10,418 nt of DNA from Promethearchaeota archaeon (GCA_048941265.1 JBHLNT010000151.1:1-10418); one strand, 5' to 3'; positions 164 to 10,418 are shown, counted from the first letter of the stretch. Notes: generated by a model from the letters alone, not told the origin. Numbers and translations: made by a program.

Positions 164-955
164 ATGATGACATTTAATAATATTGAAAAATTAAAAGAGG
201 AAAATACCATAAAAATTCGTCAATTTTTTTTAGATTACCTAGATAGAGTAAATTACAAAGGGACTTTCGGAGTTGCGAAATTTTCATCCGTTTATAATGA
301 TTTAATGCCCGTACAGCAAGATAACGTTAAAAATAAACTTAAAGAACGATTCCTTGACTTTATGAATACTGGCTCTATTATTTCTATAGGTATTTTTTAC
401 GCTCCTGATATTATAGACTGTATAAATGTCAATAGGAATGATATAATTGATTTAAATCGTTGGAATCTTTATAGTGATGAATATCAGCACATAAATGACA
501 TGCTCAAAGTAATTAGCAAAAATATTGCAGACGAGTTTAATGGAATAGCTTATACTCCTACAACTGGAACACCTTCAGAACAAATTAAGAACGTGAAAGA
601 TTATTATTATAAAACTATTTCCCATCGTCTTGTCGCAGAATATGCTGGTGTTGGTTGGCGAGGCAAAAGTGAATTAATCATTACTGAAGAAAAAGGACCT
701 ACAATACGATTTACATCTATTCTTATCAACATTCCAATGATTCAAGGATTAAAATTAGAGAGCAAATGTGGGGAATGCACCGCATGCCTCGAAGTTTGCC
801 CTATTTTAAAAAATAAAGAATTTCTTGAAGATTACAGAGAAAACTGCAGAAAATTTCTTATTAACTTAGGACTAAAACATGAAGTATGTGGAAAATGTAT
901 AAAAGCTTGCTTTCGTGAAAGTATATATAAGAGAAATTTTAAGGCAAAACTCTAA
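164..955 (+). CDS. Epoxyqueuosine reductase (QueG)/reductive dehalogenase superfamily 4Fe-4S protein, probably cobalamin-binding; substrate unknown
   Basis: 263-aa ORF containing SHRLVAEYAGVGWRGKSELIITEEKGPTIRFTSIL, which resembles the QueG/RdhA 'A..AG.G..G...L.I....G...R...I' signature. It is followed by CGECTACLEVCP and C...CGKCIKAC Fe-S motifs. The start could be ATG 164 or ATG 167. Confidence 0.75.
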   Translation: MMTFNNIEKLKEENTIKIRQFFLDYLDRVNYKGTFGVAKFSSVYNDLMPVQQDNVKNKLKERFLDFMNTGSIISIGIFYAPDIIDCINVNRNDIIDLNRWNLYSDEYQHINDMLKVISKNIADEFNGIAYTPTTGTPSEQIKNVKDYYYKTISHRLVAEYAGVGWRGKSELIITEEKGPTIRFTSILINIPMIQGLKLESKCGECTACLEVCPILKNKEFLEDYRENCRKFLINLGLKHEVCGKCIKACFRESIYKRNFKAKL

Positions 956-984
956 TAATTTATCAGTCAAAAAAATATAGAAAA

Positions 985-1070
985 GTTCAGTTTTTTAATA
1001 ATATATAGCCAAAATATATAAGAAAAAAAAAAAGAAAAATTCAATTTTTAATTTTCACACTTTTTTTGTT
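985..1070. terminator. Probable bidirectional archaeal oligo-T terminator region between convergent genes
   Basis: There are T-runs on the + strand (about 991-997 and 1060-1067) after the 955 stop. An A11 run at 1023-1033 reads as T11 on the - strand after the cdc48 stop. Confidence 0.45.
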
Positions 1071-1076
1071 AAAAAT

Positions 1077-3356
1077 TTATCGATATAATTCTTCTGAGGG
1101 CTCTTCCAAGCTTTCAGTATACGATTTTTTAGCTCTTTCAGCACTTTGCTTAATTTTTTCAATAGCCTTTTCAAATTCATTATTTGATATTTTGACTTCT
1201 CTGAAAGATTCAGGAACCATCTTATCTATTTTATAATCATAAATACCTTTTCTAATTGCTAATAATGTAGCTTCCTCGCAAATCGCCGCTATATCTGCCC
1301 CTGCAAAACCCTCTAGTCTTTCTGCAAGTTTCTCAGTATTAACATCTTCATCGATCGGTCGACCTTTCAGATGAATCGTGAAGATTTGAATACGTGAATT
1401 TTTATTTGGCAATGGCACCTCTACATGTCTACCAAATCTACCTGAGCGTAGTAAAGCAGGATCTAGTAAGTCAGGTCTATTGGTTGCGGCTAATAAAACA
1501 ACATTTCTCAATTCTTCCAAACCATCCATTTCGGTTAATAATTGCGCGACGACCTGTTCATTGACCCGAGAATTAGAGCTATCACTTCGTTTTGCTGCTA
1601 TGGCGTCTATTTCATCAAAGAAAATAATACATGGTGCTGCTGATCGCGCTTTACGAAAGATTTCTCTTATAGCTTTAGCGCTTTCACCCACCCATTTAGA
1701 CATTAACTCCGGTCCTTTTATTGAAATAAAATTTACTTCAGTTTCATGAGCTACTGCTTTTGCCATTAATGTTTTCCCCGTTCCAGGTAATCCAAATAGT
1801 AATATTCCATTTGGAGGTCTTGATTTCATATAATTATAAAATTTTGAGTATTTTAACGGCCATTCAATGATCTCTCTAAGTTGCTGTTTTGCATCTTCTA
1901 GACCGCCAACATCATCCCAAGTTTCACTAGGTTTAGTTATAAATACTTCTCTTAGGGCTGAGGGTTCTATTCCAGTCAATGCATCTAAGAAATGAATCAT
2001 TTTAATCTTTAAATTCTGCAAAATTTCTTGAGGAATTGGAGCATCAAGATTAACCAGGGGGATTATCTCCCTAATAGAAAGCATGGCTGCTTCTTTAGCT
2101 AGTGCTTGAATATCAGCACCTACAAATCCATGTGTTTTTTCAGCAAGCAATTGCAAATTAACATCTTTAGCAAGAGGCATACCCCGTGTGTGAATTAATA
2201 AAATTTCATACCGACCATTTATATCAGGAACGCTTATTTCGATTTCACGATCGAATCTGCCCGGTCTTCTCAAAGCAATATCAATATTATTAATCTTATT
2301 TGTAGCCCCAATTATAATTACTTCTCCTCTTCCTTCTAAACCATCCATTAAAGAAAGTAATTGAGCGACAATCCGAGATTCAACTTGAGTTTTTCCTTCA
2401 TCTCGTTTAGGAGCAATTGAATCTAACTCATCAAGAAAGATGATTGATGGTGCTTTTTCTTTAGCTTCTTCAAAAATTTTTCTTAAATTTTCTTCACTTT
2501 GACCGAAAAATTTGCTCATAATTTCTGGACCACTTATAGAAATGAAATGAGCATCAGTCTCATAAGCAACTGCTCTAGCTAGTAATGTCTTTCCTGTTCC
2601 TGGAGGACCGTGAAGTAATACTCCTTTCGGAGGATTTATTCCAATTTTTTCAAATAATTCCGGATGTCTGATGGGTAATTCTATCATTTCCCTTATTTTT
2701 TGAATTTCTGATTCTAGACCTCCAATATCTTCATATGAGATTCTCGTAGCAATCTTATGCATTTCCTTTTCTAAATCGCCAATTGCTTCGTATTTCACTT
2801 TAGCTTTTTCCTTTAATAAAAAATCTTCAACTTTTTCATCAGTTAACTTTATTTTAGTATCTAAGGTAATTCTAACAGCATCAGCTTTAGGAGTGTAATC
2901 CACGATAACGAGATCAATTCTTCGTCCCATAGCATAAAAACTTAAACTGTCGCCTTTAGTAATTATTCTCTTTTCCAATTTTATTGCTAATTGTTGAGTA
3001 TCTCGGATCAGAAATGATTCATCTAGTCCGGCGAATGTAATACTTTCTGCAGGACTAGAGGTAATTTTTCGAATTTCTACATAATCATCAATCGACGCAC
3101 TTATATTTCTTCTCTCTGATGGATCCATCCTTATTACTTTGGTTCCTTTATCTTCTACTTTTCCAGGAGATAACAATGCAGCTGTTTTCTTATTTGAATT
3201 AGGATGAGATATTTCTAAAACATCATTCACTTTAAATCCAAATTTATTAATGATGTCAGGATCCAATCTAATGATTCCCTTTCCCGCATCTTCCTTAAAT
3301 GCGTCTTTTATCCTTAAATTAATTATTCCTTTAGTTCTGTTTTCTTTCTCATCCAT
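1077..3356 (-). CDS. cdc48: CDC48/VCP/p97 family AAA+ ATPase (N domain plus D1 and D2)
   Basis: N-domain motif DAFKEDAGKGIIRLD. D1 has YEDIGGL, GPPGTGKT, IIFLDELD and ALRRPGRFDREI. D2 has WDDVGGL, GLPGTGKT, IIFFDEID and ALLRSGRFGR. The C-terminus is an HbYX motif (LYR). The ORF track starts at GTG 3368, but that codon overlaps the GAGGTG RBS (3368-3373), so ATG at 3356 (759 aa) is preferred. Confidence 0.96.
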   Translation of the reverse strand: MDEKENRTKGIINLRIKDAFKEDAGKGIIRLDPDIINKFGFKVNDVLEISHPNSNKKTAALLSPGKVEDKGTKVIRMDPSERRNISASIDDYVEIRKITSSPAESITFAGLDESFLIRDTQQLAIKLEKRIITKGDSLSFYAMGRRIDLVIVDYTPKADAVRITLDTKIKLTDEKVEDFLLKEKAKVKYEAIGDLEKEMHKIATRISYEDIGGLESEIQKIREMIELPIRHPELFEKIGINPPKGVLLHGPPGTGKTLLARAVAYETDAHFISISGPEIMSKFFGQSEENLRKIFEEAKEKAPSIIFLDELDSIAPKRDEGKTQVESRIVAQLLSLMDGLEGRGEVIIIGATNKINNIDIALRRPGRFDREIEISVPDINGRYEILLIHTRGMPLAKDVNLQLLAEKTHGFVGADIQALAKEAAMLSIREIIPLVNLDAPIPQEILQNLKIKMIHFLDALTGIEPSALREVFITKPSETWDDVGGLEDAKQQLREIIEWPLKYSKFYNYMKSRPPNGILLFGLPGTGKTLMAKAVAHETEVNFISIKGPELMSKWVGESAKAIREIFRKARSAAPCIIFFDEIDAIAAKRSDSSNSRVNEQVVAQLLTEMDGLEELRNVVLLAATNRPDLLDPALLRSGRFGRHVEVPLPNKNSRIQIFTIHLKGRPIDEDVNTEKLAERLEGFAGADIAAICEEATLLAIRKGIYDYKIDKMVPESFREVKISNNEFEKAIEKIKQSAERAKKSYTESLEEPSEELYR

Positions 3357-3453
3357 TTTTTCAATCACACCTCTTATTTTCTTTTATTCTTCATTAAAAT
3401 TAAATAAAATACATTTTAGATTGATTCTGTGAATTAATCCTATGATCCTAATT

Positions 3454-3464
3454 AAAAAAAAAAA
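3454..3464 (-). terminator. Possible oligo-T (T11) terminator downstream of mtd
   Basis: A11 on the + strand, about 20 nt past the mtd stop codon. Confidence 0.35.
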
Positions 3465-3483
3465 TTTATTGTTTTTTTTAATT

Positions 3484-4473
3484 TTATTCTTTAAAAAGCA
3501 GTTTCTTCGCTACTTCAAAAGCATAATTATAATCAAAAACCTTTAAACCCTTACAATTTGCGGCTTCTTTAAGTATTTGTCCCTCAGAATTTGATTTAAG
3601 CTGGCCTAGAGCCATAGCGCCAATACCAAAAATTCCTGGATATATTTCTTCATTTTTATGTTTAGGTTTTAGACCCTCTATTCCGTAGGGTGGTACTAAA
3701 TTTATATCTACAACAATTTTTTTACCTTTAAGCCTTTGCATTAAATCTTCTGAAAGAATCTCAACACCCGCAGCAGCTAACGACCAAATTATATCTGCGT
3801 CTTTAGCAATTTCAAATCTTTCCTCTGGATCTGGAGCAAAAACTCCCTTAATTTCCCCAGCTTCTTTTCCGGCTTCTTCTGTTAATTCTTTTGCGAGGTT
3901 TTCGATAAAATTTTTGCTTGATTGTTCCCAAGTTTCAATTAAAAAAGTATTGCAATTAATTTTTGCCGCCAAAATTGCTGCAATTCTCCCTACAGGTCCC
4001 GCACCAAATACCACTACTTTTTTTCCTCTCAAATTTTTTATTCCATGCTTTTTATCGGCAATATGCATGGTCATTGCAACCACAGCGGATGCTGTTGTAT
4101 GAGATCCACGAGGATCTATAATCACAGGGCATTCAAAAGGGGTAACTAATGAGTTTATCACCTTTTTAGCAATACTTTCACCCTCTTTTACATTGGACCC
4201 TCCTATGAAAAATGTAGTAGCAGCACCCGGTTTCCGAGAAAAAATAGCATCTTGAACTAGCTTAGGAACTTGATCTGCTGTCATTTTACTAATAGGCACT
4301 ACAATATCAAAACCCGCATCATAGGCCATATTTATATCGAAAGGTGAAGCATTATCATCTGTATCAAAGAAATAACATATTTTATCTGACTTCTCTACCT
4401 TTTTTATTTTAATTGGTGTTAATTCTATTATGGTTTTTCTTCCTAATATTTTTTCTACTTCACTTCTTTGCAT
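3484..4473 (-). CDS. mtdB: NAD(P)-dependent methylene-tetrahydromethanopterin (or methylene-H4F) dehydrogenase, MtdA/MtdB family, with an N-terminal extension of about 30 aa
   Basis: Motifs SPFDINMAYDAGFD, LVQDAIFSR, DPRGSHTTASA, Rossmann VVVFGAGPVG, DINLVPPYGIEG and GIGAMALG..K match the Mtd family. An RBS-like GGAGTTGA lies upstream. The MtdA versus MtdB assignment is uncertain. Confidence 0.85.
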   Translation of the reverse strand: MQRSEVEKILGRKTIIELTPIKIKKVEKSDKICYFFDTDDNASPFDINMAYDAGFDIVVPISKMTADQVPKLVQDAIFSRKPGAATTFFIGGSNVKEGESIAKKVINSLVTPFECPVIIDPRGSHTTASAVVAMTMHIADKKHGIKNLRGKKVVVFGAGPVGRIAAILAAKINCNTFLIETWEQSSKNFIENLAKELTEEAGKEAGEIKGVFAPDPEERFEIAKDADIIWSLAAAGVEILSEDLMQRLKGKKIVVDINLVPPYGIEGLKPKHKNEEIYPGIFGIGAMALGQLKSNSEGQILKEAANCKGLKVFDYNYAFEVAKKLLFKE

Positions 4474-4534: not shown

Positions 4535-5260
4535 TTATTTCTCAGGAATTTCAATTTCAATCTCATCTTCTTGTTCCTTCTCCACTTCTTTAATAGTTCT
4601 CTTGATTTTTATCTGTTCAGTTTCTACACCTAATTCATTTGCTAATTTATCAAGGCCATTAAAATGTCTAAGATCACAGATAAATAGTCCTTTTAATTTT
4701 TTACCGTTGACATCCCTTGCAAGATTTAGTATATTCATCATCATCCATGCTTCACGTACTTTATGTCTTACTTCATCTTCCTGCTCTTCATAATCTCGAT
4801 GTAAATATTCTTTCCATAAAATTAATTGCTGGAAAAATTCATCATTTTCAGGAACTCCGCCTTTTTTTTCTATCATTTCTCTGATCCTTATCTCGAGCTT
4901 TTTTATACTTTCTCTATGGTCATCTAAGGCAACTGACAAATAATCGCTCGCATTTTCCGAAATATCCCCAAGTTTGAATGGAATATTTTTTTCTTTAAAT
5001 AATTTTATCAATGGATCATTAGGGTTAAGCGTATCATCTCTCATACCTTTCTCTTCCATAGCGAAATCAGGGTGATATTTCTCTATTAAATCTTCAATTA
5101 GGCCCAGATATTCCTTGGAAATTAGGTGTAAATTCCAGATAAGGTCTTCTTTAGCTTTCTTTGGAGCTTCAAACCACCATTCAACTGGAAATTCACTTTC
5201 AACCATTATTAATTTCAAATGCTGTTTCTTTAAAGGCTCTAATTCTAAAACTTCAGGCAT
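4535..5260 (-). CDS. Uncharacterised protein (241 aa), possible TraB/PrgY/Tiki-like alpha/beta fold with a helical insertion; paralog of 5286..5903
   Basis: Full ORF with AGGAGG RBS. Motifs IEKYHPDFAMEE, VREAWM and LFICDLRHFNGL are reminiscent of TraB-family 'PDxVxVE', 'RxxxM' and 'VVGxxHxxGI'. It has an acidic C-terminal tail. The fold call is by eye only. Confidence 0.7.
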   Translation of the reverse strand: MPEVLELEPLKKQHLKLIMVESEFPVEWWFEAPKKAKEDLIWNLHLISKEYLGLIEDLIEKYHPDFAMEEKGMRDDTLNPNDPLIKLFKEKNIPFKLGDISENASDYLSVALDDHRESIKKLEIRIREMIEKKGGVPENDEFFQQLILWKEYLHRDYEEQEDEVRHKVREAWMMMNILNLARDVNGKKLKGLFICDLRHFNGLDKLANELGVETEQIKIKRTIKEVEKEQEDEIEIEIPEK

Positions 5261-5285: not shown

Positions 5286-5903
5286 TTAAAATATTATATT
5301 TTTAATTGTATGTTTTTTATTATATTGAATAACTTTAACATTATATTCTCTTAAATACTCAACAACTTGTGAACAGATATCTTCACATATATCTGTTTGA
5401 ACAAAATGAACAAAATTGACATCATCTTCTTGAAAATTTTTCGCGAGATCCAACATCTTTTTCACGATCCACATAGGTCTAATCTTAAGAGTAAGATGAT
5501 TTTCTTTTTCTTGAATTTCAATATTTATCAAATCTATCCAATTTTTTAGACTTTGACCCTTATATGAATCCCTATCTTCCAAATTTACATATTCTTCAGT
5601 TAAACCTGTGAGCAACTCCTCCTTTTCCATAATTTCCTCATAAAGATACCCCATTGCATATTCCGGAATATCTACTTGATAATATTTAATTCCCAATTTA
5701 TCTAATGCCTTAGCAAACGGGGTCCTGCTGAAATCTTTAAGATCTATATCAAAGTCAACCGTAACAAAATTAATTTTGTTATTACTTAGAAAATTTTTTA
5801 ATAAATCTGGATCAGTACTTTGAAGACTCTTACTATTTTCCTTCGCGAATATAAAAGCTGTGACTTTTTTATTTTTTATTGGTTTAATTTCTAAAACTTC
5901 CAT
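5286..5903 (-). CDS. Uncharacterised protein (205 aa), paralog of the flanking 241-aa and 74-aa proteins
   Basis: Full ORF co-oriented in the cluster, with an RBS-like GAGTTGA and visible sequence similarity to both neighbours. Confidence 0.75.
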   Translation of the reverse strand: MEVLEIKPIKNKKVTAFIFAKENSKSLQSTDPDLLKNFLSNNKINFVTVDFDIDLKDFSRTPFAKALDKLGIKYYQVDIPEYAMGYLYEEIMEKEELLTGLTEEYVNLEDRDSYKGQSLKNWIDLINIEIQEKENHLTLKIRPMWIVKKMLDLAKNFQEDDVNFVHFVQTDICEDICSQVVEYLREYNVKVIQYNKKHTIKNIIF

Positions 5904-5965: not shown

Positions 5966-6190
5966 TTAAACCTCAGATCTCAGGTTGTCTATTAGCACTT
6001 CAAGATATTGAGCGTTGAATGATTCTTTATCAGTTATCTCGTTATATGCTTTTTCAAATCCTCTTAATCTTTCCATCTTTTCTGATCGTTCATATTCAAA
6101 ATAGGCGGTTGCATATTCAACCCAAAAATCTTCATCAGTCATTTTTTCTTCTTTATTCATAAACTCCATCTTAACTTCAGTCACTTCCAT
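5966..6190 (-). CDS. Small acidic helical protein (74 aa), stand-alone homolog of residues 81-130 of the 205-aa protein
   Basis: GAGGTG RBS 7 nt upstream of the ATG. An ungapped manual alignment with the downstream protein gives 18/50 identities. Confidence 0.8.
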   Translation of the reverse strand: MEVTEVKMEFMNKEEKMTDEDFWVEYATAYFEYERSEKMERLRGFEKAYNEITDKESFNAQYLEVLIDNLRSEV

Positions 6191-6301: not shown

Positions 6302-6323
6302 TTTGACAAATATTTTTGTCAAA
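6302..6323. promoter_or_regulatory. Perfect palindrome TTTGACAAA-N4-TTTGTCAAA, candidate transcription-factor operator
   Basis: 9-bp perfect inverted arms in the divergent intergenic region. Degenerate copies with identical spacing occur at 6332-6351, 6410-6429 and 6570-6589. Confidence 0.6.
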
Positions 6324-6501: not shown

Positions 6502-6527
6502 ACTTTCGAAGATGGATTTTCGAAAGT
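6502..6527. repeat. Inverted repeat ACTTTCGAA-N8-TTCGAAAGT
   Basis: 9-bp perfect arms read directly from the sequence. Confidence 0.6.
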
Positions 6528-6547: not shown

Positions 6548-6631
6548 TTGATAGAAATATTTATAAATCTCGACAACAATTATTGTCATGTCGAAAAGAA
6601 AAATTGTTAAATTAGTCATATTTATTATCAA
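6548..6631. promoter_or_regulatory. Phased array of degenerate TTGACA-N8-TGTCAA boxes upstream of the HTH-hdrA gene
   Basis: TTGATA-N8-TATAAA (6548), TCGACA-N8-TGTCAT (6570), TCGAAA-N8-TGTTAA (6591) and TTAGTC-N8-TATCAA (6612), spaced 21-22 bp apart. Confidence 0.45.
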
Positions 6632-6675
6632 GATCCTAAATATTAAAAATTTAAAAATATGGTGGAGATGATGTT

Positions 6676-9234
6676 ATGTTGGATATATATTCAATCTTAT
6701 CTCATCCTTTTAGAAGAAAAATCCTTTTGCTCCTGGAAAAAGAAGGGTATATTCCATATACAGATTTGATGGAAAAGTTGGGTCTTGAAACAACGGGACA
6801 ATTAAATTTCCACCTAAAAAAAGTTGGTAGTTTAGTTAACAAGGATCAAAAATCATATTTTCTTACGGAAGATGGAAAACGGATCTTAAAAATCATTAGG
6901 ATTAATAAGAGAATTTTAGAGGGAGAGGATATTAATGAATATTTAGAATCTAAGGGGAGTGAGATAAGTCGTGTTGGTGTTATTGTATGTAACTGTAATA
7001 CAGAAATATCAAAAGCGATTAACATCGATCTTCTTGAAAATTATCTAACTAAATTAAAGAATGTAGTTTCCGTTAGAGTATTTGATAATTTATGCCAAAC
7101 AAAGAATTTTGACAAGATTTCAAAATGGGTCAAAGAGAATTTTTTAAATAAAATCGTTATAGCAGCATGCTCTCCAAAAACCCATCAGATTCTCTTTGAA
7201 AGAATTTTTCAAGATGTAATTGATCGTGCTAATATTGAAATCGCTAATATTAGAGAACAATGTGCTTGGGTGCATTATTATAACGCTGATCCTAAGCAAA
7301 TAGATCCTTACCTTATCTTAGATAAAGCAAAATTATTAATTGAGGCTGCTATTGCGCGCGTAATTCTTCAAAAAGAAGTGAAAATTAAACGTGTTGAGAT
7401 AGAGAAAAGCTGTGCTGTTCTTGGAGGAGGCATTGCTGGTATGACTTTAGCTTTAAATTTAGCTAGAGCAGGGATAAAAGTATTTCTAATTGAGAAATCT
7501 CCTACTTTGGGCGGTAAAGTAGCTAGGTGGAATCGAATTTATAAAATGGGAGATTGTTCTATTTGTTTCATATCAGAATTAATAGCAGAGATTGTTAAAG
7601 AAAAGAATATTAAAGTTTTTACTAATACAGAAATAGAAAATGTATCTGGAGAAGTTGGGAACTTCACACTTGATTTAGTAAAAAAACCGAGATTTATAGA
7701 CGAACGAAAATGTACTGGCTGCAAACAGTGCCTTGAAGTATGCAATATAGAAAAATCCGATCAGTATGAGTTTGGTTTAAAGAATAGAAAAATTATATAC
7801 ATTCCTTTTATACATTCTTTTCCATATGTGCCTTTAATTGATGAAAGTGATATTAAAAATTGCCTTAATTGTAGGATATGTGAAAGGGCTTGTGTGAATA
7901 AAGCTATAGATCTGAATCAAGTTCCAGAAAATATAAAAATTAAAGTTGGGACAAAAGTTATCGCTATTGGTGCTGATCTTACCTCTAATTTAGAAGAATT
8001 TGGTTATAATCCGCAAGATGATATTATTACTTCTGCTGAATTTGAGCGAATTTTATCTTCAGATGGCATTACCGAAGGAAATTTGGTAAAACTTTCTGAT
8101 AGAGAACCACCAAAATCAATTTCAATAGTTCAGTGTGCAGGTAATTCTGATTTTCATTCGAAATTTAAAGATGCCATTGTATTAAAATATATAGATAGTA
8201 TTACAGGGAGGTTGCCTCAATGTGAAATTAATGTCTTTTATGATTTAAACAAATTCAAAAAAGATAAAGCTTTTTTCCTGACACCTATGGATAAAAGATT
8301 TCATTACGCGCAAAAATTAAAAATTATTGGAAAAAACAACAAAAAATATGTCATTGCAGATTCACAAGAATATCCTAGTGATATGATAATCCTAAATATA
8401 GATCTTATTCCAAATACTGATTTAAAAAATCTACGTACAATAATGGATTTTTCCTTAAACGATGATGGATTCATGAGCGAAGAAACATTAGGATCTGGGA
8501 TTTATGGCATTGGAACTATTTTGGGTCCTCTTGATTATCATAAAACGGTTTCTACTGCAAACAATGTGGCATTAAAAGTGATATCTTTACTTTCTCAAGA
8601 ATATTTAATAGCAGAATTTACCGGAATTGAAATTAATGAGGATAAATGCGGTTTATGTGGCTTATGCATGCAATCTTGCCCTTATAACGCAATTGTTATA
8701 GGAAATGAAAGAATAAATGTTGATAAATTTAAATGCAAAGGGTGTGGTACTTGTGTGAGTGTTTGTCCTACTAATGCGATTGAAATGAATGTTGACACTT
8801 CTGAGAAAATACTTAAAACGATTGAAATATTATCGAAATCGAAAAGAACTCCAAAAATAGTGGCATTCTGCTGTAAATCCTGTGGATATGCAGCCGCAGA
8901 TGATGCTGGATTTAAAAAACTCCATTATGATCCAAATATCTTTATTATAAGAGTCCCTTGTACCGGAAGGGTGGACACAAACTTTATTATTAAAGCTATT
9001 GAGTTTGGTTTTGATGGAGTCATGATAATTGGATGTAGAAGGAATGCATGCAGGTATATTGATGGAGTAGAAAAAGTAGAAAAAAAAATTCAATTATTAA
9101 GGGAAATTTTAGGCCCCAAATATGGCAATCGCATTATTCTCAAACACATGAATGCTGTTGAGGGGAATAAGTTTGCAGAAGTTATAAATGAATTTTATAA
9201 TCAATTGGCCGAGGAGGTAAAATTTGAAGCTTAA
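6676..9234 (+). CDS. hdrA: Fusion protein: ArsR-like winged HTH, HdrA-like flavo-iron-sulfur domain (heterodisulfide reductase subunit A) and C-terminal MvhD (hydrogenase delta, [2Fe-2S])
   Basis: Residues 1 to about 80 read LSHPFRRKILLLL...YTDLMEKLGLETTGQLNFHLKKV...YFLTEDG (wHTH). HdrA motifs: RVGVIVCNC, AACSP, NIREQCAWVH, GGGIAG, EKSPTLGG, DCSIC and EFERIL, plus four CxxCxxCxxxC ferredoxin motifs. MvhD motifs: FCCKSCGYAAAD, RVPCTGRVD and DGVMIIGCRRNACRY. RBS GGTGGAG at 6661-6667. Confidence 0.92.
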   Translation: MLDIYSILSHPFRRKILLLLEKEGYIPYTDLMEKLGLETTGQLNFHLKKVGSLVNKDQKSYFLTEDGKRILKIIRINKRILEGEDINEYLESKGSEISRVGVIVCNCNTEISKAINIDLLENYLTKLKNVVSVRVFDNLCQTKNFDKISKWVKENFLNKIVIAACSPKTHQILFERIFQDVIDRANIEIANIREQCAWVHYYNADPKQIDPYLILDKAKLLIEAAIARVILQKEVKIKRVEIEKSCAVLGGGIAGMTLALNLARAGIKVFLIEKSPTLGGKVARWNRIYKMGDCSICFISELIAEIVKEKNIKVFTNTEIENVSGEVGNFTLDLVKKPRFIDERKCTGCKQCLEVCNIEKSDQYEFGLKNRKIIYIPFIHSFPYVPLIDESDIKNCLNCRICERACVNKAIDLNQVPENIKIKVGTKVIAIGADLTSNLEEFGYNPQDDIITSAEFERILSSDGITEGNLVKLSDREPPKSISIVQCAGNSDFHSKFKDAIVLKYIDSITGRLPQCEINVFYDLNKFKKDKAFFLTPMDKRFHYAQKLKIIGKNNKKYVIADSQEYPSDMIILNIDLIPNTDLKNLRTIMDFSLNDDGFMSEETLGSGIYGIGTILGPLDYHKTVSTANNVALKVISLLSQEYLIAEFTGIEINEDKCGLCGLCMQSCPYNAIVIGNERINVDKFKCKGCGTCVSVCPTNAIEMNVDTSEKILKTIEILSKSKRTPKIVAFCCKSCGYAAADDAGFKKLHYDPNIFIIRVPCTGRVDTNFIIKAIEFGFDGVMIIGCRRNACRYIDGVEKVEKKIQLLREILGPKYGNRIILKHMNAVEGNKFAEVINEFYNQLAEEVKFEA

Positions 9235-9982
9235 GTTTTCAATTATTTCTTTAACTGGATGTAGTGGATGTATATCTACATTAATTTCACTTGATATTTT
9301 CCCTCAATTTTTAGAAAGGACTGAAATTTTATATTTTCCATTTATTAATGACACGAGAAAAGTTGAGAATTGTGATGTAGCATTAATAGAGGGATGTATT
9401 TCGGAAAAAAGTGAAATTAATTTTCTTAAAAATATAAGAAAGTCCGCAAAAAAAGTTTATGCCTTAGGTTCTTGTGCAGCTTATGGGGGAATCTTAAGCC
9501 TTTCAGATAAAATTAATGCAGAACCGATTTCAAATTTTATAGAGATAGATGGGTTAATTCCTGGTTGCCCAATCCCATCTAAATTACTCGGGAATTGCTT
9601 AATTAAATTAATCGAAAATAAAGAGATAGAATTATCCGAAAGAAATCTGTGTGCAACATGCCCTTTTAATGGAACCTTAGATTTAGATTTTAAAACAAAA
9701 GTAATTAAATATTATCCATCCCAAGATGAGATTTTAACTCCTGAAGAAAATTCAAATTGTTTTTTGAAGCGAGGAATTCTGTGTTTCGGTCCCATTACCC
9801 GAGATGGATGTGAACAAAGATGTATTTCACAGGGAATTCCCTGTGAGGGGTGTATGGGCCCTGTTTCAAAAGATTATTTTGCTAATATGATTAATTATCT
9901 AAGTTTAATAAAGCTTTCAGAGGAATTAAGAAGATATAAAGGAATTTTTTATCGATTTTCAAAACCAAAACTTAATTGGTGA
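9224..9982 (+). CDS. mvhG: [NiFe]-hydrogenase small subunit, group 3 (MvhG/VhuG-like)
   Basis: Motifs LTGCSGC, EG, GSCAAYGGI, IPGCP, CATCP and CFL..G.LCFGPITRDGC...C......CEGCMGP. No Tat signal. TTG start with GAGGAGGT RBS at 9211-9218, overlapping the upstream gene by 11 nt. Confidence 0.88.
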   Translation: MKLKFSIISLTGCSGCISTLISLDIFPQFLERTEILYFPFINDTRKVENCDVALIEGCISEKSEINFLKNIRKSAKKVYALGSCAAYGGILSLSDKINAEPISNFIEIDGLIPGCPIPSKLLGNCLIKLIENKEIELSERNLCATCPFNGTLDLDFKTKVIKYYPSQDEILTPEENSNCFLKRGILCFGPITRDGCEQRCISQGIPCEGCMGPVSKDYFANMINYLSLIKLSEELRRYKGIFYRFSKPKLNW

Positions 9983-9987
9983 TCGTA

Positions 9988-10418
9988 ATGCTAAAAGTTG
10001 TTGAAGTATGCTCTCGGGTTGAAGGACATGGTAATATGAATTTATATATTAATAATCAAAATGATGAAATTTCACATGTTGATTTTGAAATTAGAGCTTA
10101 TCGAGGATTTGAAGATATTTTAATCGGTAAAAAATTGATTGATATCCCTAAAATCACATCAAGAATATGTGGATTATGTCATGCCTCCCAATCCATCGTT
10201 AGTTGTAAAACTATAGAATCTATTTACGATGTTGTGCCATCAGAACGTTCAGTTCTTTTAAGAAGACTATTATTAGCAGGAGAATTGATAAAATCGCATA
10301 GTTTGCATTTCTTTTTTCAATCTTTTCCGGATTTATTGAAGATCTTTAATATTAAGCAGAAAATTCCGTCTCTTTATGAATTAATAAATTATAATCCCCA
10401 ATTAACAACAAATTTTTA
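9988..10418 (+). CDS. mvhA: [NiFe]-hydrogenase large subunit, group 3 (MvhA-like), 5' part; runs off the window end and is not in the ORF track
   Basis: Manual translation from ATG 9988 gives MLKVVEVCSRVEGHGNMNLYINNQNDEISHVDFEIRAYRGFEDILIGKKLIDIPKITSRICGLCHASQSIVSCKTIE...LIKSHSLHFFFQSFPD. It contains RVEGHG, RGFE, the L1 RICGxC and SHxLH motifs, with GGTGAT RBS upstream. The frame is open to the end of the window. Confidence 0.92.
   Translation, partial: MLKVVEVCSRVEGHGNMNLYINNQNDEISHVDFEIRAYRGFEDILIGKKLIDIPKITSRICGLCHASQSIVSCKTIESIYDVVPSERSVLLRRLLLAGELIKSHSLHFFFQSFPDLLKIFNIKQKIPSLYELINYNPQLTTNF

Follow-up and report, generated by a model that had tools for sequence, protein, structure and literature searches.

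Regulatory [NiFe] hydrogenases of bacterial group 2b, HoxBC of C. necator and HupUV of Rhodobacter among them, signal via a histidine kinase and a response regulator (HoxJ/HoxA and HupT/R, respectively). A more direct arrangement is known from the trigger enzyme PutA of enterobacteria, a flavoenzyme with an N-terminal DNA-binding domain that autoregulates its own expression where two promoters diverge; the change between its DNA-bound and working forms is attributed to the redox state of the flavin. Hydrogen exchange is considered central to the Asgard lifestyle and to syntrophy models of eukaryote origin, and to our knowledge nothing is known on how Asgard archaea sense H2. Here we describe a candidate sensor, encoded on a 10,418-nucleotide (nt) stretch of DNA from a Promethearchaeota archaeon (GCA_048941265.1, JBHLNT010000151.1:1-10418; the whole stretch is called the window below). 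It joins a winged helix-turn-helix (HTH) domain in frame to the electron-transfer protein HdrA-MvhD, and the genes for a dedicated pair of [NiFe] hydrogenase subunits, MvhG and MvhA, follow directly. A literature search met with no account of an HTH fused to HdrA, nor of a sensory [NiFe] hydrogenase in archaea, although supplements of Asgard papers may list these genes.

The subunits are homologous throughout to those of the MvhAGD-HdrABC complex of methanogens, an electron-bifurcating hydrogenase/heterodisulfide reductase (PDB 5ODC, 9SW2): HdrA, MvhD, MvhG and MvhA match with E values of 1e-108, 4e-26, 4.5e-32 and 2e-50, respectively. The architecture of the module, its conservation, its operator and the set of genes that carry that operator are solid observations. 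The reading developed from them, to which we assign a probability of roughly 0.5, is that the three genes encode an H2- or redox-responsive, hydrogenase-coupled one-component transcription regulator.

The window is the whole of one contig (C157) of an Asgard metagenome-assembled genome of 5.01 Mb (361 contigs; 91% complete; 4.8% contaminated; about 30% G+C). The fusion open reading frame (ORF), at 6676-9234 on the plus strand, encodes 852 amino acids (aa). Matches to PF24038, HdrA2 and FlpD within this frame bear out the sequence-only reading, an earlier annotation made from these nucleotides, which had proposed a winged HTH fused in frame to HdrA-MvhD with mvhG and mvhA tightly coupled downstream: the fusion gene overlaps mvhG by 11 nt, and mvhG overlaps mvhA by 7 nt. 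The parts of the module are these:

6676..6969, plus strand: winged-HTH domain, residues 1-98 (Pfam PF24038; AlphaFold2 models)
6970..8850, plus strand: HdrA-like flavo-iron-sulfur core, residues 99-725 (NCBIfam HdrA2; PDB HdrA chains)
8107..8211, plus strand: segment of residues 478-512, at the position of the canonical C-x12-C-x3-CC [4Fe-4S] site (alignment to solved HdrA)
8851..9234, plus strand: MvhD/FlpD domain of [2Fe-2S] type, residues 726-852, stop codon included (Pfam FlpD)
9224..9982, plus strand: mvhG-like [NiFe] small subunit, 252 aa (Pfam Oxidored_q6)
9976..10418, plus strand: mvhA-like [NiFe] large subunit, 5' part, 147 aa (Pfam NiFeSe_Hases)
10162..10191, plus strand: L1 motif RICGLCHASQ of MvhA, with Gln72 at the conserved-His position (alignment)

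The window's mvhA is incomplete, since the contig stops at 10418. Another contig from this assembly (C64, 3,471 nt) matches positions 9533-10418 with 93.8% identity over 886 nt and continues through mvhA, providing a close variant with a full-length MvhA of 437 aa. C64 is probably a strain variant of the window's 3' end, and the assembly seems to break at a point of strain variation. A DNA contig from a public run spans 6604-7154, the region of the HTH-HdrA junction. As a separate observation, public contigs aligned to the window show many variant letters; all the runs concerned are of DNA, and no RNA run was listed for this stretch.

Residues 3-74 of the fusion protein match PF24038 (DUF7347, winged HTH) with 46.1 bits for the domain alone and 40.9 bits for the whole protein (cut-off 27.6); HTH_24 and HTH_20 match the N-terminus only under their cut-offs. 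AlphaFold2 predicts a winged helix (predicted local distance difference test, pLDDT, 86) with helices at residues 4-9, 11-23, 28-35, 40-53, and 65-81, wing strands at 54-57 and 60-63, and a low-confidence linker at 83-95 that leads into the HdrA N-domain. The recognition helix is that of residues 40-53 (TGQLNFHLKK). Twelve residues of the domain are invariant in 43 sequences of 35-100% identity, and the HTH is the best-conserved part of the module: the window's genome (G000) shares 85% identity in this domain with each of two genomes of genus g11 (G184 and G188), the same pairs having 70-71% in the HdrA core and 77-78% in MvhD.

Among solved structures, Foldseek places the HTH model nearest to dimeric winged-HTH repressors (YodB, CadC, ArsR, and NolR-DNA) at a template-modelling (TM) score of 0.6-0.7 and an E value of only 6.5e-3; nothing was returned at E <= 0.001, and the weaker rows are all winged-HTH regulators. 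The best PDB match by sequence is an archaeal ArsR-like protein (E 0.02). Modelled as a homodimer, residues 1-100 score 0.61 against 0.01 for the best of three controls, with contact agreement of at least 94% and pLDDT of at least 85 between runs. (Of proteins with solved structures, 20 of 30 homodimers and 1 of 23 single chains attain the mark used to read this score; the counts hold only roughly, our own alignment having been used.) The predicted interface comprises residues 1-9, 14, and 69-90, thus the first and last helices as in ArsR-type dimers; because it is the ArsR-type arrangement, the score may reflect model memory. The models point to an ArsR-like fold that would form a two-fold homodimer. 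The sequence-only reading had called on an HdrA homodimer for the two-fold symmetry that a palindrome needs. Since the HTH domain itself is predicted to dimerise, the HdrA dimer would not be required. As an aside, three membrane proteins of 310-441 aa (P0148, P0151, P0188) carry two tandem DUF7347 copies with a similar recognition helix (TG.LNYHLK).

The 485 nt upstream of the fusion gene contain two copies of an inverted repeat with the consensus TGAYAA-N6-TTRTCA. One lies toward a divergent set of genes, and the other next to the fusion gene:

6304..6321, no strand: operator O1, exact inverted repeat TGACAAATATTTTTGTCA, about 115 nt upstream of the divergent 74-aa gene
6571..6588, no strand: operator O2, CGACAACAATTATTGTCA, one mismatch; same TATA-operator layout in other loci of the window's family, f1
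5966..6190, minus strand: w74, small acidic 74-aa ORF
5286..5903, minus strand: w205, first gene of the divergent partner operon (synteny)
4535..5260, minus strand: w241, an Asgard-only protein
3484..4473, minus strand: MtdA-like dehydrogenase, Mpt_N plus Rossmann fold (Pfam PF09176, E 8.6e-25)

O2 begins 3 nt past a TATA-like TTTATAAA (6560-6567), and 87 nt separate its end from the ATG. In the loci of f1 the operator follows the TATA box by 2-4 nt, and is therefore laid out as for a repressor. We fetched 32 loci; counts of operators and alignments run over 33 loci or fusion proteins, and related loci are not independent. Within 500 nt upstream of the 33 fusion genes there are 18 exact sites, in 16 of the 33 loci. 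By comparison, 500 dinucleotide shuffles give a mean of 0.016 and a maximum of 1, and spacings of 3, 4, 5, 7, 8, and 9 give 0, 0, 1, 0, 1, and 0 sites. Carriers of a proximal site include lineages whose fusion protein is only 35-40% identical to that of the window. The operator-like palindromes that the sequence-only reading had picked out upstream of the fusion gene thus prove to be copies of a conserved operator, far above chance and newly recognised here.

The operator is also rare elsewhere. The 5.01-Mb genome has only five exact sites, and the strict form TGACAA-N6-TTGTCA occurs once, in the window (O1). Fifteen further exact sites in 482 kb of loci are likewise not randomly placed and fall into three groups: in genus g11, ahead of the frhB-like gene with which the operon opens; in family f31, in the interval from mvhA to the w241-mtd gene; and 100-170 nt upstream of homologues of w74 or w205. 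The w74 homologues have their operator at this distance even when 5 kb separate them from the fusion gene. Three of the four genome-wide sites of G188, a complete genome, are at fusion-operon or partner promoters; one of the three precedes the w205 homologue by 160 nt, at a distance of 10 kb from the fusion gene. Judging from these sequences, the fused HTH very likely binds TGAYAA-N6-TTRTCA.

A regulon beyond the locus was considered and rejected. The other four exact sites in G000 lie in or at coding regions, and in five further genomes the off-locus sites are about equal in number to those of a backwards-pattern control. Two other elements were seen in the upstream region. Between O1 and O2 lies a palindrome at 6502-6527 (ACTTTCGAAGAT/ATTTTCGAAAGT; 12-nt arms, 92% complementary), flagged as terminator-like on the minus strand by a bacterial scan of a kind that does not apply to archaea. 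At 6600-6625, and at the same place in other f1 loci, a half-site-like AAATTGTYAAA is conserved 10-20 nt downstream of the proximal operator, presumably inside the 5' leader.

The remainder of the fusion protein is HdrA and MvhD. Residues 99-846 match NCBIfam HdrA2 at E 1.2e-177 and 592 bits, under the curated cut-off of 1100; the NCBIfam HdrA models give 376-425 bits, under cut-offs of 1300-1400. PDB HdrA chains align at E 1e-108 to 1e-112, and the AlphaFold2 model of HdrA resembles 8rvy_A with a TM score of 0.85. FlpD/MvhD matches residues 728-845 (E 9.6e-36; 122.9 bits, cut-off 22.3), and PDB MvhD chains match at E 4e-26 with the [2Fe-2S] Cys residues aligned and invariant. Across 43 orthologues five elements are invariant: the flavin adenine dinucleotide (FAD) motif; the four Cys of the N-domain; the DCSxC pair; both ferredoxin domains, the inserted and the C-terminal one; and the MvhD Cys. 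The FAD fold is thioredoxin-reductase-like, with an invariant GGGxAG motif at G250-G255.

One HdrA site departs from this pattern. Alignment to solved HdrA shows that three of the four Cys of the C-x12-C-x3-CC site are gone from the window protein (residues 478-512), which retains five of the six HdrA [4Fe-4S] sites. The HdrA core had been called degenerate in the sequence-only reading; that description fits this site and no other, every other site being present and invariant. The site is kept in 10 of the 33 fusion proteins (families f19, f31, and f28) and lost in 23. We take it to be that of cluster HA4. In canonical Hdr, HA4 sits, according to published excerpts, on the high-potential path from FAD to HdrC/HdrB. 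A GxGxxG-like motif, as would mark a replacement by an NAD(P) site, was not seen by eye in the aligned segment.

MvhG matches NCBIfam VhuG at E 3e-36, below cut-off, and PDB MvhG at E 4.5e-32; the Cys residues of the three clusters align, and the protein is about 35 aa shorter. The full-length MvhA of C64 matches 7t2r_D (E 3e-55) and the MvhA chain 5odc_F (E 2e-50). Of the marks of group 3c (Mvh/Vhu-type) [NiFe] hydrogenases, the Ni-Fe Cys residues are kept in all readable orthologues (L1 CxxC in 31 sequences; L5 DPCxxC in 31 sequences). Two features set the window's MvhA apart. The first is the L1 motif, RICGLCHASQ in the window as against RICGIC(PVS/QVA/DVQ)H in solved large subunits of the MvhA and related types. 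Gln replaces His in the window and C64 copies and throughout the 18 sequences of f1, f4, and f6. The other is the carboxyl terminus: solved MvhA has an extension of about 25 aa, of the kind that an endopeptidase cleaves off in this group, which MvhA of the window lineage is without. In 16 sequences of f1 and f5 the stop codon comes directly after the L5 His, and other lineages run on for 5-13 aa.

Both features occupy the same alignment columns as in HoxC of C. necator (alignment with pHG1 genes), which confirms the Gln at the L1 His position noted from the sequence; the membrane-bound HoxG in the same alignment has the L1 His and a 15-aa extension. The L1 Gln and the missing extension are named as marks of regulatory hydrogenases in excerpts of two papers (PMC5665086, PMC8159394). 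The suggestion that the HTH fusion always goes with a Gln-type MvhA fails, since 13 of the 31 readable partners keep the L1 His (f21, f28, f19, and f31). Second-sphere residues have been lost elsewhere: f31 is without the L0 Glu and His; f19 is without the L0 His; and f28 is without the L5 His; the Ni-Fe Cys are always kept. (Two single-genome departures may be decay or sequencing error: the mvhA frame of L077 ends early, at 376 aa, and in L063 the L5 His is replaced by Gln.)

A canonical hydrogenase is encoded elsewhere in the same genome. Contig C200 (8,471 nt) carries, at about 700-3665, a Vhu-type [NiFeSe] enzyme with a long small subunit of 438 aa and a large subunit of 434 aa; the latter has a His-type L1 and no L5 motif. 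That motif resides in a small VhuU-like ORF of its own, which has TGA in frame at the first L5 Cys position and an extension of 21 aa. The Vhu genes are flanked by hypD, hypE, hypF, and an hdrC-like gene. The sequence-only reading had asked for a canonical hdrABC/mvhADG set in this genome, and the hydrogenase, its hyp genes and the hdrC-like gene answer to part of it; neither hdrB nor hdrC lies on the 10.4-kb contig of the window, and hdrB was not searched for genome-wide. Both types of hydrogenase occur in each of three f1 genomes tested, and one f3 genome has the Vhu type only. For the same pairs of genomes, VhuA identities are 88%, 85.5%, and 56%, and those of the HTH-linked MvhA are 60%, 61%, and 35%; by this comparison the HTH-linked MvhA evolves about three times faster than canonical VhuA.

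The fusion is neither a one-off nor an assembly chimera. Of the 120 best database homologues (65-100% identity), nearly all have a length of 843-855 aa and cover the whole query, and most have PF24038. A search from residues 1-100 only gave 147 matches among 253 candidates; among the matches listed (120 of the 147), all have the same architecture and all source names are Asgard. An HTH search of 400 Asgard species genomes found the fusion in about 118 (E <= 5.4e-16; frame of 840-900 aa), a count that includes two rows with shorter, unchecked frames. These homologues and genomes, together with the public DNA contig that bridges the junction, dispose of the chimera that the sequence-only reading had allowed for. 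By family the fusion is present in roughly 90 of 134 genomes of f1, 3 of 4 of f4, 3 of 3 of f5, 2 of 2 of f6, 3 of 6 of f21, 4 of 5 of f28, 6 of 19 of f19, about 8 of f31, and 0 of 14 of f3. Close relatives are uneven: within the window's own genus it is present in two of nine other genomes, and it was not found in a close relative assembled in 10 contigs (92% complete). A representative library of 1.84 billion proteins gave seven clusters at E <= 1e-30, and only about eight rows align the HTH through the HdrA N-domain.

The hydrogenase genes travel with the fusion. Every fetched locus with downstream DNA (31 of 31) has mvhG-mvhA directly after the fusion gene, and none of seven non-fused hdrA-mvhD loci has the pair. 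In quick trees the fused HdrA forms make one clade against eight non-fused HdrA-MvhD rows (Shimodaira-Hasegawa approximate likelihood-ratio test, SH-aLRT, 100). Placement of MvhA, which the sequence-only reading had recommended, gives a matching result: the HTH-linked MvhA are one clade (SH-aLRT 92, small tree) beside a Vhu-like clade, with HoxC and HoxG outside. Both trees have f19 plus f31 deepest and f1, f4, and f6 most derived (f5 as well in the HdrA tree); the branching order of f21 and f28 is resolved in the MvhA tree only. On the MvhA tree each change is a single step: the fusion precedes loss of the cluster site (branch support 81), which in turn precedes the replacement of His by Gln (99). 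Because the basal lineages that have the fusion keep the His and the cluster site, the fusion is older than either change. As far as these sequences tell, it is conserved and old.

The partner genes add a metabolic note. In f1, f21, and f4, the genes w205, w241, and that for the MtdA-like protein lie beside the fusion gene in divergent orientation; in f19 and f31, mvhA is followed on its own strand by homologues of w241 and of the MtdA-like gene, and not by one of w205. The MtdA-like gene is thus a conserved neighbour in all five families. It is two genes with w241 in the window and a single ORF of 558-567 aa in several lineages (L057, L059, L052, L038). Its product is the only Mpt_N protein in the genome, where a separate canonical F420-type Mtd is present. 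Proteins w205, w241, and w74 belong to no family in Pfam or NCBIfam; w205 and w241 are weak paralogues of each other, present in Asgard clusters only. In the Atlas, w241 met only Asgard hypothetical clusters, with a weak TraB/PrgY/GumN lead at 0.83, and w74 nothing usable. Gene w241 was not found in four of five genomes without the fusion. Genome G190 (97% complete), where the fusion was likewise not found, has a w241-mtd locus with no operator in its 3.7 kb, a single case.

In genus g11 the neighbourhood is richer. An FrhB/FdhB-like gene (387 aa, two 4Fe-4S motifs) stands between the operators and the fusion gene (L038:5735-6895; also L040 and L041), and downstream of mvhA come an HdrD-like gene with a CCG domain and an HdrA-like gene of very large size. 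Among the neighbours conserved across the fetched loci there is neither a kinase gene nor a second gene for a putative DNA-binding protein.

These features suggest a mechanism. An ArsR-like winged-HTH dimer, joined by a flexible linker to HdrA-MvhD with its own dedicated MvhG and MvhA, would bind TGAYAA-N6-TTRTCA at three promoters: that of its own operon; that of the 74-aa gene; and that of the w205-w241-MtdA-like operon. H2 would be oxidised at the Ni-Fe site, its electrons passing along the MvhG clusters to the MvhD [2Fe-2S] center and on to the Cys pair, FAD and [4Fe-4S] clusters of HdrA, and the redox state of this chain would decide whether the HTH dimer stays on the operator. The window lineage, the Loki-type families, has taken on sensor-like traits: the cluster that feeds HdrBC lost; Gln at L1; no extension; and a fast-evolving MvhA. 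Metabolic work would fall to the canonical Vhu-type hydrogenase. That H2, via the dedicated hydrogenase, sets DNA binding is the most economical reading of the sequences; the direction of regulation we infer likewise.

Several observations weigh against this interpretation. Apart from the lost cluster, the cofactor ligands are invariant (three MvhG clusters, the MvhD Cys, FAD, and five HdrA [4Fe-4S] clusters), which fits an enzyme equally well, and it is not obvious why a pure sensor should require an output branch of ferredoxin type. An excerpt from one of the two papers cited for the hallmarks (PMC5665086, PMC8159394) states that in the bacterial sensor the Gln 'seems not to be involved in H2 sensing'. 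In the basal families f19, f31, and f28, which have the same HTH, the HdrA site and the L1 His are retained, as is a short extension at the C-terminus of MvhA; because these families keep the cluster site and the His, the HTH alone is no mark of a non-catalytic module. The basal lineages also have the operator in common with the window, except that no proximal site with at most one mismatch was found in the f28 loci, whose recognition helix differs; only 18 of the 33 loci have such a site. The context is metabolic, with the MtdA-like gene and, in g11, an FrhB-like gene inside the operon and the HdrD-like CCG gene downstream. Other DUF7347 proteins with a similar recognition helix are encoded in these genomes, so that the operator may have another binder. 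And the related loci are non-independent samples. Of the earlier proposal that an Mvh-Hdr paralog had been repurposed, the sensor side finds partial support in the two hallmarks of the window's MvhA; the other cofactor sites are conserved and would suit real electron flow. Because that conservation is strict, the module may yet be catalytic.

Seen from this side, the module would be a working hydrogenase first and a trigger enzyme in the manner of PutA, linking H2 with ferredoxin and, via FrhB-like and MtdA-like partners, with F420/NADP and the tetrahydromethanopterin (H4MPT) one-carbon pool. The HdrA-borne HTH would then repress its own operon and the partners when the enzyme is idle or oxidised, and regulation would be secondary. 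Much is in keeping with this: cofactor ligands strictly conserved along the full electron path; an intact HdrA and an MvhA of His type in the basal lineages; w241 and the MtdA-like gene right after mvhA (f19, f31), or fused to each other in several lineages; and an FrhB-like gene at the head of the operon (g11). Asgard NiFe-FrhG-HdrA clusters are, moreover, presented as energy-conserving hydrogenases in excerpts of two reports (10.1101/2025.02.26.640444, PMC11291895). The window lineage sits less easily with it, being without the HdrA cluster that leads to HdrBC in canonical Hdr and having an MvhA with both sensor hallmarks that evolves about three times faster than the VhuA of the same genomes. 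Nor would patchiness among close relatives be expected of such an enzyme (two of nine in the genus; none of 14 in f3; absent from the 92%-complete genome of 10 contigs). We consider the trigger enzyme the main rival, less likely than the sensor-leaning reading.

The other explanations are weaker. If another factor, such as a second DUF7347 protein, binds the palindrome, the fused HTH could be a structural, dimerising or tethering domain. Proteins of that kind with a similar recognition helix do exist, in these genomes and in others, the tandem-copy membrane proteins included; binding by the fused HTH is argued from sequence, and the Foldseek E value is weak (6.5e-3). This we hold to be improbable, since the operator accompanies the fusion operon in families only 35-40% identical to the window protein, no part of the module is better conserved than the HTH, the neighbourhood has no second conserved gene with a putative DNA-binding product, and the fusion-negative w241-mtd locus of G190 lacks the operator (3.7 kb, one case). 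Still less probable is a redox sensor not specific for H2, in which the chain would report the state of ferredoxin, thiols or oxidants and the hydrogenase would only poise or reset it. Its appeal lies in the ferredoxin-type domains and FAD site that are kept, and in the quinone- and redox-sensing repressors YodB and QsrR among the nearest HTH folds. However, a dedicated MvhG and MvhA are present in 31 of 31 loci with all Ni-Fe and cluster ligands kept; H2 is favoured as the input because this pair would otherwise be hard to explain.

If the H2-responsive regulator is the correct account, the family preserves the steps of its making: first an HTH on a complete enzyme; next an HdrA without the cluster; and last a large subunit that has Gln for His and no extension. 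It could then be, though we put this at somewhat under an even chance, the first archaeal H2 sensor and the first sensory hydrogenase outside bacterial group 2b: convergent with that group on two large-subunit changes, and a one-component factor that switches a small regulon with an H4MPT-linked dehydrogenase. The module makes a concrete candidate for H2 sensing, with a defined DNA-binding domain, an 18-bp operator, a small predicted regulon, and a natural series of intermediates. Public records name these genes 'hydrogenase iron-sulfur subunit', 'FAD-dependent oxidoreductase' or 'HdrA', and counting such clusters as energy-conserving may overstate bifurcating capacity where the HdrBC-feeding cluster is gone. 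A hard-wired switch from H2 to DNA, if that is what this is, would be usable as a biosensor part.

Other genes of the two contigs complete the description. Upstream of the partner operon the window encodes a QueG-like Fe-S protein (164-955; TIGR00276 E 2e-18, below its cut-off) and a CDC48/VCP-type double AAA ATPase of 763 aa (1077-3368), which has a paralogue on contig C229 about 75% identical in DNA. On C64, a 354-aa ORF with no family assigned lies 3' of mvhA. After it, about 1.2 kb downstream of mvhA, begins a membrane protein with a cytoplasmic portion similar to the N-terminal regions of sensor kinases; this ORF looks unrelated and is not conserved beside the module in other loci.

How does the module compare with known systems? 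With HoxBC it shares, as proposed here, a [NiFe] hydrogenase used for gene control; large-subunit changes at the same alignment positions, the L1 Gln and the missing C-terminal extension; and a host genome that also encodes catalytic hydrogenases. The differences are considerable. Identity with HoxC is only 19%, and HoxC groups with HoxG as a distant outgroup, so the likeness is convergent. The bacterial sensor speaks to DNA through a histidine kinase and response regulator; here the DNA-binding domain is fused to an electron-transfer subunit, the partner subunits are of Mvh/HdrA type, and the host is an archaeon.

The nearest relatives by descent are metabolic. With MvhAGD-HdrABC the module has in common the FAD site, the Cys pair, the N-domain cluster and both ferredoxin domains. 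It differs by the N-terminal HTH; by the fusion of MvhD to HdrA; by the absence of adjoining hdrBC in the window; by loss of the C-x12-C-x3-CC site; by the L1 Gln; by the lack of the MvhA extension of about 25 aa; and by an MvhG about 35 aa shorter. HdrA2 of Methanosarcina, the best NCBIfam match, has the same HdrA-MvhD fusion order; it has no HTH and, in excerpts of the report on it (PMC6019823), works with HdrB2C2 and F420H2 rather than a dedicated MvhGA, and the window protein scores 592 bits where that family asks 1100.

The DNA-binding half looks elsewhere. ArsR/SmtB-type and HxlR-type repressors (CadC, NolR, YodB, QsrR; archaeal 1Y0U) have the same order of helix, helix, HTH, wing, and helix; they dimerise through the first and last helices, as predicted here, at palindromic operators that overlap promoters. 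They sense metals, quinones or thiol oxidants within a small domain, whereas the presumed sensor here is a flavo-iron-sulfur module of about 750 aa with a hydrogenase attached. PutA offers a parallel for a DNA-binding domain on a redox protein; it differs in its ribbon-helix-helix fold, its proline input, its lack of a hydrogenase or Fe-S chain, and its bacterial host. Finally, the putative sensory [FeFe] hydrogenases (group C; HydS, with PAS) likewise couple or fuse a hydrogenase to a signalling domain, according to excerpts of PMC11216029. Their metal site and fold are unrelated, their PAS domain does not bind DNA, and they are bacterial.

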